From Candidatus Harpocratesius repetitus (lineage in GTDB: Archaea; Asgardarchaeota; Lokiarchaeia; Sigyniarchaeales; Promethearchaeaceae): a stretch of DNA of 32,000 bases. This document shows positions 3,868 to 7,261 of the stretch, one piece after another; within the stretch, counting starts at the first letter, position 1, and each line of letters opens with the position of its first letter. A program made the translations under genes and the position numbers. Under the pieces are notes generated by a model. That model saw nothing but the letters and a program-made list of their open reading frames with translations. It was not told the origin of the DNA and did no database searches. The DNA is taken from NCBI GenBank assembly GCA_021498095.1, contig JAIZWK010000001.1, forward strand, positions 4,316,768-4,348,767, given 5' to 3'.

Positions 3868-4842
3868 ATGCATGACGATACAAACAAAATATTAACATTG
3901 GCTGAAAGATTTGAATATTCTCCATTTATGATTCGTCAAATAATGAAAAACTTTCCAAATGACCATATAGCAGCATTGAAGGCTTTTGCCCAGCCTGCTC
4001 CAGAAACAATACGGGTTAATACTTTAAAAATATCTCCTGAAGAATTAAAAACAAGACTGGAAGAGAAGGGATTTAAATTAACCCCAGTAGAATGGTTGGA
4101 TTATGCTTTTCATGTAGATTCGACCCATACCCACCATACATTGGGAGCAACTCACGAATATTTGAAGGGTTTTTATTATTTACAGAGTTTAGGTTCAATG
4201 ATTCCAGTTCATCTGTTATATCCTAAACCCGGTGATCAAATATTAGATATGTGTGCAGCACCAGGGAGTAAAACGACTCAAATCGCCCAATACATGCAGA
4301 ATCAAGGTCAAATAATAGCAATCGATATTAAGAAATCACGGATAAATTCCTTAATTTCCAATATTCGGCGCATGGATGTTAGAAATGCAATTATTTTTCC
4401 TTTTGATGCCACTCAATTATATATTCAACATTTAGGTAAATTTCGACCGAATAAAATCCTTCTTGATGCACCTTGCACCGGGAGTGGTATATTAAGGCAT
4501 GATCCTTCGATAAAACGGATGAAAAATGACTCAAAAATTCATCGTTTGCGACAACAGCAAAAGAAACTACTAAAAGCTGGATTAAAGCTACTTCCTAAGG
4601 GAGGAACCTTAGTATATTCAACATGCTCATTTCATTATCAAGAAAATGAAATGGTGGTCGCTGAAGTATTAAAAGAAGTAAAAAACGTAGAAATTATTGA
4701 ACCTCAAGAAAATATCGGTTTGCCAGGATTCAGCCAAATTGATGACATGGAATTTGGATATAATTTACTAAAATCACGTAGACTTACTCCACATTTACAC
4801 AATTGTGACGCGTTTTTCTATTGCATTTTGCAGAAATCATGA
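3868..4842 (+). CDS. RsmB/NOP2/NSUN family RNA cytosine-C5 methyltransferase, Nop2-like
   Basis: IRVNTLK, LGATHEYLKGFYYLQ, LDMCAAPGSKT (SAM binding), LLDAPCTGSG and YSTCS (both catalytic Cys present). Confidence 0.93.
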   Translation: MHDDTNKILTLAERFEYSPFMIRQIMKNFPNDHIAALKAFAQPAPETIRVNTLKISPEELKTRLEEKGFKLTPVEWLDYAFHVDSTHTHHTLGATHEYLKGFYYLQSLGSMIPVHLLYPKPGDQILDMCAAPGSKTTQIAQYMQNQGQIIAIDIKKSRINSLISNIRRMDVRNAIIFPFDATQLYIQHLGKFRPNKILLDAPCTGSGILRHDPSIKRMKNDSKIHRLRQQQKKLLKAGLKLLPKGGTLVYSTCSFHYQENEMVVAEVLKEVKNVEIIEPQENIGLPGFSQIDDMEFGYNLLKSRRLTPHLHNCDAFFYCILQKS

Positions 4843-4865
4843 TGAAATAATAAAAATAATAGATT

Positions 4866-4894
4866 AAAAAAGGAAAAGCAGTGAAAAATTTTCA
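4866..4894. terminator. Putative terminator region between the convergent methyltransferase and GG-tail genes
   Basis: TGAAAA-A-TTTTCA inverted repeat at 4882-4894, plus a T6 tract on the minus strand (A6 at 4866-4871) just past the stop at 4901. Oligo-T termination is the archaeal norm. Confidence 0.4.
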
Positions 4895-4900
4895 TTGAAT

Positions 4901-5209
4901 TTATCCTCCACCTCGTAATAATTTTTTTCTAAATTGCGCCATTAATGATTGAACTGCATTTTCTTCTCCTTCAAAAACAATTTCAGTGCACGGAAGTAAA
5001 AATCCAGGAAAGCACTGAGAATTTGTCTCATTAACACATACCTTGCATGAATTCACATAAAAAAATGATTTTTTTGCAGATTTAGTTGTAGAATCTTTAT
5101 TTGGAGCACTTAAATTTTGAAAAAATGAAATGATTTCAGAACGCGAAATCCCACTGAAAATAGAGTGTCGAGAGGAAGAAGGAGCGGTAGAGGAAAAAGG
5201 GGGGAAAAT
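4901..5209 (-). CDS. Un-called ~102-aa MoaD-related C-terminal-domain protein (DUF1952-like) ending in RGGG; start codon uncertain
   Basis: Hand translation of the stop-free frame: IFPPFSSTAPSSSRHSIFSGISRSEIISFFQNLSAPNKDSTTKSAKKSFFYVNSCKVCVNETNSQCFPGFLLPCTEIVFEGEENAVQSLMAQFRKKLLRGGG*. The pattern FxGIS..(Y/F)xxNL..VxFEGxE..FxxKxxR(A/G)GG matches my recollection of the DUF1952/MoaD_arch family. There is no in-frame ATG/GTG/TTG in the first half, which explains why the track missed it. Confidence 0.72.
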   Translation of the reverse strand: MFPPFSSTAPSSSRHSIFSGISRSEIISFFQNLSAPNKDSTTKSAKKSFFYVNSCKVCVNETNSQCFPGFLLPCTEIVFEGEENAVQSLMAQFRKKLLRGGG

Positions 5210-5216
5210 TCATGAT

Positions 5217-5651
5217 TTATTCTTCAGGTTCATTTATAACATAACGGAAAGATTGCAACTCTTCAAGGGCATTAAGTTCTGTAATAAAACTTTGGATTTC
5301 TGTCATGTTATCTTCTAGAACATAGTTCCCGTAGATTGTATCATGATGAACAAATATATTTTTATTCAGAATGCTTTTATGATAATCTATTTCCAAACGA
5401 GTAATTTTCTTCTCTAATTTCGAATTTTGTTTGCTATAGGTTATCATAATACTGGCAGTCAATTCCGGTAACATGGCTTCAAAATCATGTGTAGATGAAA
5501 TTATAGCACCATCATCCAGATCCTTCTCAGCCATCAAACGTAAAAGCGCATCCCGCATAACATAAGAATTATTCTTATATTCTTTTTGATTTACCATGCG
5601 CTTTAAGAATCCCTTTAGAGAATCTGAAATATTAAAAGATATAATTGGAAT
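5217..5651 (-). CDS. NikR/CopG-type regulator (ribbon-helix-helix plus ACT-like domain), 144 aa, probable ATT start
   Basis: The frame extends 18 codons upstream of the called ATG (5597) to give (M)PIISFNISDSLKGFLKRMVNQKEYKNNSYVMRDALLRLM, a complete RHH. ATT at 5651 follows GGTGA plus a 5-nt spacer and an in-frame TAA. The C-terminal half has the NikR_C secondary-structure pattern. Confidence 0.75.
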   Translation of the reverse strand: MPIISFNISDSLKGFLKRMVNQKEYKNNSYVMRDALLRLMAEKDLDDGAIISSTHDFEAMLPELTASIMITYSKQNSKLEKKITRLEIDYHKSILNKNIFVHHDTIYGNYVLEDNMTEIQSFITELNALEELQSFRYVINEPEE

Positions 5652-5782: not shown

Positions 5783-7261
5783 TTAAAGCAGAGAAGATAA
5801 TTTTTCTAAAGACACTTGTGATCTTATTCGATCTTCCAATTGGATGATAGAAATTTTATATTGAGCCGCAATCGATTCTAATACATCATATTCAATTTTA
5901 TAGTGAACAATTTTCTTTTCATCATCTAAAGCGATCTTGACGGGTATTTGATGTTCATTTTCGAAGATTTTTAATGTGACTTTAACGATTTTCCGCGGAA
6001 GGCATACACGGATTGTGTTATAAAAGCGAACACCCAAAGTTCCTGTTTGAATCAGAAGTTCTGCAATTAGATGGTCACGATTTTCTGGTGAACAAAGAAC
6101 TTGAATTTGATGTCCTGGTCGATTTTTTTTAGTAATCGTTGAAACTAAACTCACATCCAATGCACCTGCTTTTAAGAGAGAAGAATATATATTCCCTAAT
6201 AGTTCCCCCCGCACATCATCTATATTTGTTTCAATTACTGAAATTGGACGGGGCTGGGAAGATAACTTGTAAGTTCCAATAGTATATTGCCATACTTCAT
6301 TTAGTGGTTCTTGAGATACTGCAGTTTTATGCATATTTACTTGCAGTATTTGGAGAATATTGGCTTGATGAACTAATTCTATATTTCCAACTCCAATTCC
6401 GATATGTTTTACTGTGAAAAATTGAGATGGGATTTGTTGGGAGAGAAGATTAAATTTCTTTAAGCCTGCTAATAAAGCAACTCCAGTTGGAGTAGCAAGT
6501 TCTCGAGATTCTGGACCATATTTAAATATAAGTTCTGCATTAGAAAGGATTTCCAAAGTTGCAGGAGCAGGCACAGATACTATACCATGTGATATTTTTA
6601 CTTGGCCACCTCCTACTGCTATTGGATCAGCATAAATTTTAAACGAATTTAAAGAAGTAAAAGCACCTAAGAGATCTAAACCATAACCAACTCCGATTAA
6701 ATCAATAATCGTGTCTATTGCACCAATTTCATGTAAATGAATTTGATCGGGTGATAAATTGTGAATTTTAGCTTCAGCTTCCAGAATAGCCCTAAAACAA
6801 TAATGAATATAACTTTGTGCTACAGAAGACAGCCGTTCTCCTTTGCAAATTGCATCAATTTTATTTTTCATCCAAATAGGTGTAAGGAATTTAGGATGAA
6901 TTACATGTTGATGGATATAATTGTCTGTCTTTGGAGAAGTAATATCAAGATTAGATTTAGAAGGAGATTTTATTGATAATTTTATAGAATTGGAATCAAA
7001 TTGAATATGATGCTCTAAGTTTTCCGAACTGGGTTTAATTAAAAGATGAGAGCCGCTAATTCCATTGCTGATTTTACGATCTATTTTAATGCTCAAAGAT
7101 GAATATTCTTTAATATAGGATGGAATTTTATCTAAAAATCGCTGCATTTTATCATAAGAGATAATCTCAGCCAGAGCACTTAAAAATAAATCACCACTAA
7201 TACCTGCATAGCTGCATTTTATTATAAGTGCTTGTTCCATATGATCAAGTCCATGATTCAT
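5783..7261 (-). CDS. larC: Nickel-pincer cofactor nickel-insertion protein LarC, single uninterrupted ORF
   Basis: AGISGDLFLSAL, IHLHEIGAIDTIIDLIG, GGGQVKISHGIVSVPAPAT, ELATPTGVALL, ETNIDD, KKNRPG, TGTLGVR, KIEYD. The start may be the ATG at 7240. Confidence 0.92.
   Translation of the reverse strand: MNHGLDHMEQALIIKCSYAGISGDLFLSALAEIISYDKMQRFLDKIPSYIKEYSSLSIKIDRKISNGISGSHLLIKPSSENLEHHIQFDSNSIKLSIKSPSKSNLDITSPKTDNYIHQHVIHPKFLTPIWMKNKIDAICKGERLSSVAQSYIHYCFRAILEAEAKIHNLSPDQIHLHEIGAIDTIIDLIGVGYGLDLLGAFTSLNSFKIYADPIAVGGGQVKISHGIVSVPAPATLEILSNAELIFKYGPESRELATPTGVALLAGLKKFNLLSQQIPSQFFTVKHIGIGVGNIELVHQANILQILQVNMHKTAVSQEPLNEVWQYTIGTYKLSSQPRPISVIETNIDDVRGELLGNIYSSLLKAGALDVSLVSTITKKNRPGHQIQVLCSPENRDHLIAELLIQTGTLGVRFYNTIRVCLPRKIVKVTLKIFENEHQIPVKIALDDEKKIVHYKIEYDVLESIAAQYKISIIQLEDRIRSQVSLEKLSSLL

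Follow-up and report, generated by a model that had tools for sequence, protein, structure and literature searches.

What is encoded by an open frame that fills an apparent intergenic gap in an archaeal genome and ends in Gly-Gly directly before its stop codon, and is it a gene at all? This question is raised by a stretch of 32,000 nucleotides of Candidatus Harpocratesius repetitus (contig JAIZWK010000001.1, positions 4,316,768 to 4,348,767), hereafter the window, to which all positions below refer unless another sequence is named. The frame lies on the minus strand at 4901-5209, between an RsmB/NOL1-type methyltransferase gene (3868-4842, plus strand) and a NikR-like gene (5217-5597, minus strand). 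It holds 102 sense codons without a stop and closes with the tail VFEGEENAVQSLMAQFRKKLLRGGG, then TAA at 4903-4901. The initial annotation, made from the DNA letters, had read it as a hidden gene, possibly for a small sulfur carrier or protein modifier akin to MoaD. We find that it is a genuine, conserved gene of the DUF1952/MoaD_arch family (PF09189), disrupted at its start in this strain. With a probability of about 0.55 for the reading as a whole, we propose that this family is an accessory of MoaD/MoeB modules linked to tungsten aldehyde:ferredoxin oxidoreductase (AFOR) and, more tentatively, that it has a working Gly-Gly end.

The stop-free frame is present in the gap as first described, and its length by itself is weak evidence for a gene: a mononucleotide-shuffled window (32% G+C) holds 1.6 ± 1.3 frames that run for 102 codons or more without a stop. 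The case is carried by conservation. When 40 related genomes were searched in six frames, the genus itself yielded an open frame of 109 codons (49% identity, E 2.9e-21). Four more genomes, from the same taxonomic family, have open frames of 87-114 codons; every one of the frames found starts with ATG and ends in GG-stop. The profile of the family matches the window frame at E 1.2e-20. Protein databases gave 227 clusters at E ≤ 1e-3, besides 49 close relatives; the proteins of these clusters are nearly all 80-100 residues long (typically 83-90), and the alignment reaches the last residue. Open reading frames of 430-455 residues in a sister family (E ~1e-3) were rejected as spurious, being amidohydrolase-like and sharing only the stretch 'IIFEGSRENE...GGG'.

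A sister strain (Candidatus Harpocratesius sp.) carries a 103-residue 'hypothetical protein' (P0007) with 91% identity to the window frame. The gene order around it is the same as in the window: GH20, larC, the nikR-like gene, the DUF1952 orthologue and the convergent methyltransferase gene. Between the two frames there are 9 synonymous and 8 non-synonymous changes, i.e. a ratio of non-synonymous to synonymous rates (dN/dS) of 0.23; under neutrality, about 13 of the 17 changes would be expected to be non-synonymous. For the same pair of strains, dN/dS is 0.20 for larC, 0.065 for the methyltransferase gene and 0.057 for the nikR-like gene. We count the frame as more than a chance occurrence because of the homologue in the genus, the match to the family profile and this dN/dS. 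The initial annotation had pointed to conservation as the way to check its proposal, and both the frame and its terminal GG are kept in related Asgard genomes, with a dN/dS that is not near 1. The sister sequence that was compared directly with the window is a 25.9-kb Logan contig (L013) from a 2025 metagenome run of an unrelated study, ~96% identical over this stretch; on this sister contig the gene order is kept and the 103-residue gene is intact.

Among Asgard archaea, the family was found in 7 of 14 Promethearchaeaceae genomes (window genome included), in none of 27 genomes of sister families and in none of the 294 genomes of a phylum-wide sample. The guess of an Asgard-like archaeon was right: the organism belongs to the Promethearchaeaceae, close to Ca. 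Harpocratesius. The bulk of DUF1952 proteins occurs in Clostridia. A maximum-likelihood tree of 154 members is poorly resolved as to whether the Asgard proteins form a single clade or have a Bacillota origin.

The family itself is already known, as a Pfam entry (PF09189) and through a crystal structure of 2004 (1V8C), and the window gene is a further member. Our search of the literature on DUF1952, PF09189 and HVO_2178 found no paper on its function, and 1V8C is mentioned only in passing. Precomputed PF09189 matches exist for the sister protein P0007 (in the E ≤ 1e-5 class) and for 45 of the 49 homologues. A 143-member profile with the window peptide as its first row matched residues 95-152 of 1v8c_A at E 1.7e-4, the next match being at E of at least 0.77. 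The AlphaFold2 (AF2) model of the window peptide (mean predicted local distance difference test score, pLDDT, 79) has the order β1-α1-β2-β3-β4-α2, with predicted strands at residues 12-19, 48-52, 55-63 and 74-82 and predicted helices at residues 23-33 and 83-101. Aligned with VIA-align against the PDB, this model finds 1v8c_A as its best match (Z 9.5, 87 residues aligned; next 7.5), while Foldseek places 1v8c_A second (E 0.17), behind the TATA-binding-protein-like (TBP-like) domain 4 of phosphoglucomutase. Its structural neighbours are the C-domain of 1V8C, phosphoglucomutase domain 4 and KH-like alpha/beta domains. In the ESM Atlas, the best match is a MoaD_arch cluster (template modelling score, TM, 0.69/0.72), and Pseudomonadota clusters of ~104 residues are further structural neighbours (TM 0.63-0.75).

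According to these models, DUF1952/MoaD_arch proteins are standalone proteins of ~85 residues with a TBP-like β-α-β3-α fold, not a β-grasp. No ThiS or ubiquitin-family Pfam match was found when the window peptide and its homologues were scanned. Both the kinship with DUF1952/MoaD_arch and the link to the Thermus MoaD-related protein, which the initial annotation had brought up, are supported by the precomputed matches and by the profile and structure matches to 1v8c_A; its suggestion of a non-β-grasp fold agrees with the AF2 model. The C-domain of 1V8C, from Thermus thermophilus HB8, is the founding member of PF09189 and has the same β-α-β3-α order as the window protein. It differs in being fused behind a MoaD-like β-grasp domain, whereas the window protein stands alone, and the two share only ~10% sequence identity. 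A Pfam-A hmmscan of the peptide and its homologues returned no PF09189, and canonical MoaD_arch proteins likewise gave none at E ≤ 10, but this family is listed both in precomputed tables and in the ESM Atlas (Pfam 38.1); we treated the silence of hmmscan as a gap in the library that carries no weight as evidence. In NCBIfam, no model matches any DUF1952 protein. The TIGRFAM model moaD_arch (TIGR01687) describes a β-grasp MoaD and is different from the MoaD_arch of PF09189, although the names are easily confused.

The terminal Gly-Gly, on which the initial annotation had built its proposal, is conserved more strongly than any other feature of the family. Among the 143 aligned members, 132 end in GG-stop and 9 in GA-stop, and conservation reaches or exceeds 90% of the sequences at three positions only, a Phe of the last helix and the two terminal Gly. 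The alignment gives a consensus tail FRLxFLSAGG and the motif F-R-x-x-F-L-[S/R]-[A/G]-G-G-stop. The window frame ends in FRKKLLRGGG, with the codons GGT GGA GGA (4904-4912, minus strand) for Gly-Gly-Gly and the stop directly after them; the last two of these Gly are the conserved ones. Proteins of the MoaD, ThiS, SAMP, Urm1 and ubiquitin type are likewise small, with a frame that ends exactly at a conserved Gly-Gly, but they have a β-grasp with an extended tail, whereas DUF1952 has another fold and a predicted helical C-terminus. To our knowledge, all known proteins with a terminal Gly-Gly handle (ubiquitin, SAMPs, Urm1, MoaD, ThiS, TtuB, CysO) are β-grasp proteins. In studies of SAMPs, a Gly-Gly-ended SAMP3 neighbour is said to have shown no conjugates, with uncertain relevance here.

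The cysteines fared differently from the Gly-Gly end. The window frame does contain the four that had been pointed out (C55-x-x-C58, C65 and C73), but the CxxC and the further Cys are not conserved outside the genus: most members have 0 or 1 cysteine, and CxxC varies even inside the genus. The Harpocratesius-genus proteins are the most divergent in the 143-member alignment. They carry a Lys/Ser-rich insert of 10-15 residues after the first helix and three or four Cys where others have W-E-[IV]-E, and the DUF1952 protein of the window strain and its sister has an N-terminal extension.

We then compared the start of the gene in the window and in the sister strain. The earlier reading was silent on the start codon, and the first in-frame ATG, GTG or TTG occurs only at codon 52, a GTG at 5054-5056 (minus strand). 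Starting there would remove β1, α1 and most of β2 of the model, and a folded domain is unlikely to result. The start codon of the intact sister orthologue corresponds to an ATG at 5211-5213 (minus strand), 4 nt past the stop of the NikR-like gene, which is here one base out of frame and opens a frame of only 26 codons. The site of the frameshift is a run of six C on the coding strand (G6 on the plus strand; 5199-5204), followed by T5, which reads CCCCCCTTTTT in the window and CCCGCTTTTT in the sister. After a shared ATG AAT TTT CCC, the window continues with CCC TTT TTC C and the sister with GCT TTT TCC (MNFPAFS...). At codon 5, the C-run is thus one base longer in the window (CCCCCC) than in the sister (CCCGC). 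Relative to the window, contig X3 lacks one base at 5199 and has G>C at 5201. The gene looked hidden because one extra base in the C-run puts the ATG at 5213 out of frame. It is indeed uncalled in this genome, as the initial annotation had supposed, but the cause is this frameshift; in the sister strain, the 103-residue gene was called normally.

This extra base is not obviously an assembly error. The Logan contig X1, built from a run of the source sample at a depth of 21 by a separate k-mer assembly, has the same C6 run; it is a separate assembly of the same source sample and not an independent sample. The contigs of a further run, X2, do not extend over the homopolymer. From the sequence, the window copy may be either a very recent pseudogene or a gene expressed by a non-standard route, such as initiation at the near-cognate ATT at 5209 or slippage by +1 in C6T5. 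Whether the frameshift is genuine, recent and without bypass, leaving this strain with no DUF1952 protein, is a matter separate from the function of the family, and we regard it as an even call. A dead copy is suggested by the lack of a canonical in-frame start ahead of codon 52, by the confirmation of the extra base in an independent k-mer assembly of the source sample and by the apparent dispensability of a family found in half of the Promethearchaeaceae genomes. On the other side, the remaining frame is intact and has a dN/dS of 0.23, the in-frame ATT at 5209 stands just past the upstream stop, and C6T5 would be a plausible slip site. The Asgard copy probably stands at the margin of its family or is decaying.

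The context of the bacterial loci is informative on function. Loci were sought with, among other means, a degenerate DNA pattern for FR[LM][KR]FLx[AG]GG-stop; one of the 23 pattern matches, in a Flavobacteriales genome, was a false positive. Among 33 distinct loci, genes within 3 kb include MoaD/ThiS-like genes in 13 loci, AFOR genes in 10, ThiF/MoeB-like E1 genes in 8 and radical S-adenosylmethionine (radical-SAM or radical-SAM/SPASM) genes in 6. All loci with such linkage are bacterial. Two of them are tight co-directional operons, with gaps or overlaps of only 4-19 nt, in the order AFOR, radical-SAM protein, MoaD-like protein (74 residues, ...PPVGGG), ThiF/MoeB-like protein (226 residues) and DUF1952 (...FLTAGG). 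For the radical-SAM protein of this operon, the nearest model is TIGR04317, 'tungsten cofactor oxidoreductase radical SAM maturase', with 369 bits for a cut-off of 380. The E1 gene lies directly between the MoaD-like and DUF1952 genes in these two operons, and is adjacent to DUF1952 in six more loci. A functional carboxylate is suggested because 141 of the 143 members stop exactly at the tail (GG or GA) and an E1 gene adjoins.

In several Clostridium genomes, the MoeB-like E1 genes that are convergent on DUF1952 code for proteins of ~500 residues (L050:3882-5456, L055:831-2336, L057:2398-3924 and L058:98-1615). These long E1s have an N-terminal extension of ~270 residues that has no Pfam match and resembles a degenerate second Rossmann-like half; one of them contains a poly-Asn run.

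Fusions point to the same partner. In Thermus (1V8C), the DUF1952 domain is fused to a MoaD-like domain, and a 217-residue archaeal cluster carries ThiS together with MoaD_arch. Searches limited to fused forms of at least 180 residues returned none, a length range outside which the ~168-residue Thermus form falls. Co-occurrence gives a similar picture. Among 149 Clostridiaceae genomes, AFOR is present in all 8 that have DUF1952 and in 25 of the 141 that do not (Fisher p 3e-6), where this p value, like our other co-occurrence counts, ignores relatedness among genomes. In 5 of these 8 positive genomes, DUF1952 and AFOR lie within ~3 kb of each other. AFOR is also present in all 7 DUF1952-positive Promethearchaeaceae genomes and in four further named genomes with DUF1952.

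The neighbourhoods of AOR (aldehyde oxidoreductase) with MoaD and MoeB, Thermus being among those listed, were proposed to serve molybdopterin synthesis for the tungsten cofactor (Iyer, Burroughs, Aravind 2006, PMC1779556). The gene set is the same as in our loci, but that paper covers the β-grasp MoaD, without mention of DUF1952 or its Gly-Gly. In Aromatoleum aromaticum, AorD and AorE of the aorABCDE operon were described as 'resembling MoaD' and as putative maturation factors for the tungsten cofactor, and recombinant AOR co-expressed with aorD and aorE had a specific activity of 16 U/mg, up from 4.5 U/mg (PMC6365974, PMC9295118). These are small genes downstream of a tungsten AOR, and Clostridial DUF1952 genes hold a corresponding position behind AFOR and a MoaD-like gene. 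The aor genes adjoin AOR, whereas the window gene adjoins no AFOR gene.

The window genome is a single contig of 4.36 Mb with 6 AFOR, 6 MoaD/ThiS-like and 5 ThiF-family genes, of which two code for about 560-570 residues. The AFOR genes are located at C1:2106613, 2320236, 2707174, 2765142, 3054861 and 4298847, and in four of the six cases a MoaD-like gene with a GG end comes next; the nearest AFOR-MoaD pair is about 16-18 kb ahead of the window start. AFOR genes are numerous across the family, with 4-11 in each of 13 of the 14 Promethearchaeaceae genomes. We searched the window genome for MoaE, MoaC, MoeA_N and the C-terminal domain of MoaA and found no matches. MoaE was found in none of the 14 Promethearchaeaceae genomes vs. 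11 of 27 genomes in sister families. The pterin cofactor of Promethearchaeaceae may be either salvaged or made by an unrecognised route. Because MoaE and the related Moa/MoeA proteins were not found, a role of AOR-linked MoaD and DUF1952 in classical molybdopterin synthase chemistry is less likely here.

From fusions, gene order and co-occurrence, we propose that DUF1952 would assist the MoaD/MoeB module that accompanies AFOR and matures tungsten-pterin enzymes. The free carboxylate of its Gly-Gly may be the working end, adenylated by the MoeB-like E1 of the cluster and carrying sulfur, a part of the proposal that we hold tentatively and at slightly less than even odds. DUF1952 would then act as a second sulfur carrier, without a β-grasp, beside MoaD. 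In Promethearchaeaceae, the gene would have left the operon and would survive on its own in genomes rich in AFOR genes. The argument for activation of the Gly-Gly comes from the Clostridial operons with MoeB-like E1 and MoaD-like genes; it has substance but is indirect, and the Asgard copies do not share this linkage.

Apart from the relatedness of the genomes counted, several points weigh against this proposal. In all 6 distinct Asgard loci, the gene is unlinked to AFOR, MoaD and E1, and linkage is likewise missing from about half of the bacterial loci. The proposed function of the family comes from gene context, and any role in this strain is conditional, as the window copy may be dead. The body of DUF1952 differs from the β-grasp that E1 is known to bind. 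Its C-terminus is helical almost to the last residue in the AF2 model, unlike the extended tails of MoaD, ThiS and ubiquitin, and nine of the 143 members end in GA. AorD and AorE are likened to DUF1952 by description and gene position, and are no more than candidate members of the family. Finally, the older model PF09189.15 gave no match at E ≤ 10 in a six-frame run on the window genome; the Pfam check named in the initial annotation thus has a split outcome, with PF09189 carried by the sister orthologue and by homologues but the older model unmatched in the window genome itself. A complex prediction for the cognate MoeB-like E1 dimer with ATP and the DUF1952 protein of the same operon scored 0.02, which has no value as a verdict.

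The main rival is that DUF1952 is a partner that is not activated: it would bind, chaperone or regulate the AOR-linked MoaD-like protein or the apo-enzyme, with the Gly-Gly serving as a docking element, e.g. a mimic of the MoaD tail. Fusion to, or adjacency with, MoaD-like genes would be expected in this case as well, and the TBP-like fold, the modelled helical C-terminus and the existence of variants ending in GA all agree with it. E1 enzymes recognise the β-grasp body of their substrates, as in the MoeB-MoaD and ThiF-ThiS complexes, which also favours a partner that is bound without being adenylated. Docking would not, however, require the immediate stop seen in 141 of 143 members, nor would it account for the position of the E1 gene between MoaD and DUF1952 in two operons and beside DUF1952 in six more loci; we consider this rival rather unlikely. 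The activated reading has its own stronger form, in which DUF1952 proteins would make up a further structural class of Gly-Gly carriers activated by E1, unrelated to the β-grasp, and would act beside the AOR-linked MoaD, delivering sulfur for, or maturing, the tungsten-pterin cofactor of AFOR, with non-canonical maturation or salvage in Promethearchaeaceae. In that full form, it is somewhat more doubtful still.

Protein tagging and a nickel-pincer role are less likely than a non-activated partner of MoaD. As a free-standing modifier, DUF1952 would be a SAMP/ubiquitin-like tag of new fold, put on lysines by a UbaA-type E1 independently of tungsten enzymes. The conserved terminal Gly-Gly would suit such a tag, as would the five ThiF-family genes of the window genome, with their two long members, and the solitary position of the gene, both in Asgard genomes and in roughly half of the bacterial genomes. 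We judge it improbable, given that no JAMM, E2 or E3 gene adjoins DUF1952 in the loci examined, that the conserved context is cofactor maturation and not conjugation, and that presence in one Asgard family only is ill-suited to a general tagging system. The local neighbourhood of the window suggests another role, in which DUF1952 would work in the Harpocratesius genus with LarC and the NikR-like regulator, e.g. as a sulfur donor for the nickel-pincer cofactor. There, larC, the nikR-like gene and DUF1952 are co-directional, with 4 nt between the last two, and the arrangement is kept in the sister strain and in a second genome of the genus. But it is limited to this one genus, the neighbours in other Promethearchaeaceae differ, larC was found in no bacterial locus examined, and of the three genes it is DUF1952 that is disrupted in the window, larC and the nikR-like gene being intact. 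This last role appears very improbable.

The neighbours of the Asgard DUF1952 genes vary by genus. The order larC, nikR-like, DUF1952 is kept only inside the Harpocratesius genus; in other Promethearchaeaceae, the gene is found with an AAA ATPase and a DJ-1/PfpI gene, with a helix-turn-helix regulator and an aldo-keto reductase, or between a PhoU-like gene and the gene for ATP synthase subunit c. In the window, a LarC-type nickel insertion gene (5783-7261, minus strand) lies upstream of the co-oriented NikR-like gene. The stop-to-stop frame of the latter has 144 residues and, ahead of the called gene, takes in 5598-5651 (minus strand); NCBIfam NikR models match it from residue 6, a point 13 codons before the ATG that was called at 5597. 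This fits a ribbon-helix-helix part that would need a non-canonical upstream start.

On the 3' side of the frame, the tail between its stop and the convergent methyltransferase gene (4844-4900, read on the minus strand) contains the T-tract that had been noted: a T5 and a T6 run, which correspond to the plus-strand A-runs at 4884-4888 and 4866-4871. Judged by its letters, this tail is a plausible candidate for an archaeal oligo-T terminator; a hairpin terminator was looked for 3' of the frame and none was found. Promoter-like sites are no more frequent in the window than in shuffles, in a scan that has no model of archaeal promoters. The window was found to contain no tRNA and no Rfam family.

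In this strain, a conserved gene has thus escaped annotation through a one-base difference in a homopolymer. The interest of the finding sits at the level of the family, for which the Clostridial operon is a better study system than the Asgard copy. The family points to an uncharacterised helper for the maturation of tungsten aldehyde oxidoreductases, enzymes that are of biotechnological interest for acid reduction and whose heterologous production is limited by cofactor loading (PMC9295118). With its different fold and its strict Gly-Gly-stop in operons that also encode E1 and MoaD, it would allow an inexpensive test of whether the chemistry of E1 enzymes depends on the β-grasp.

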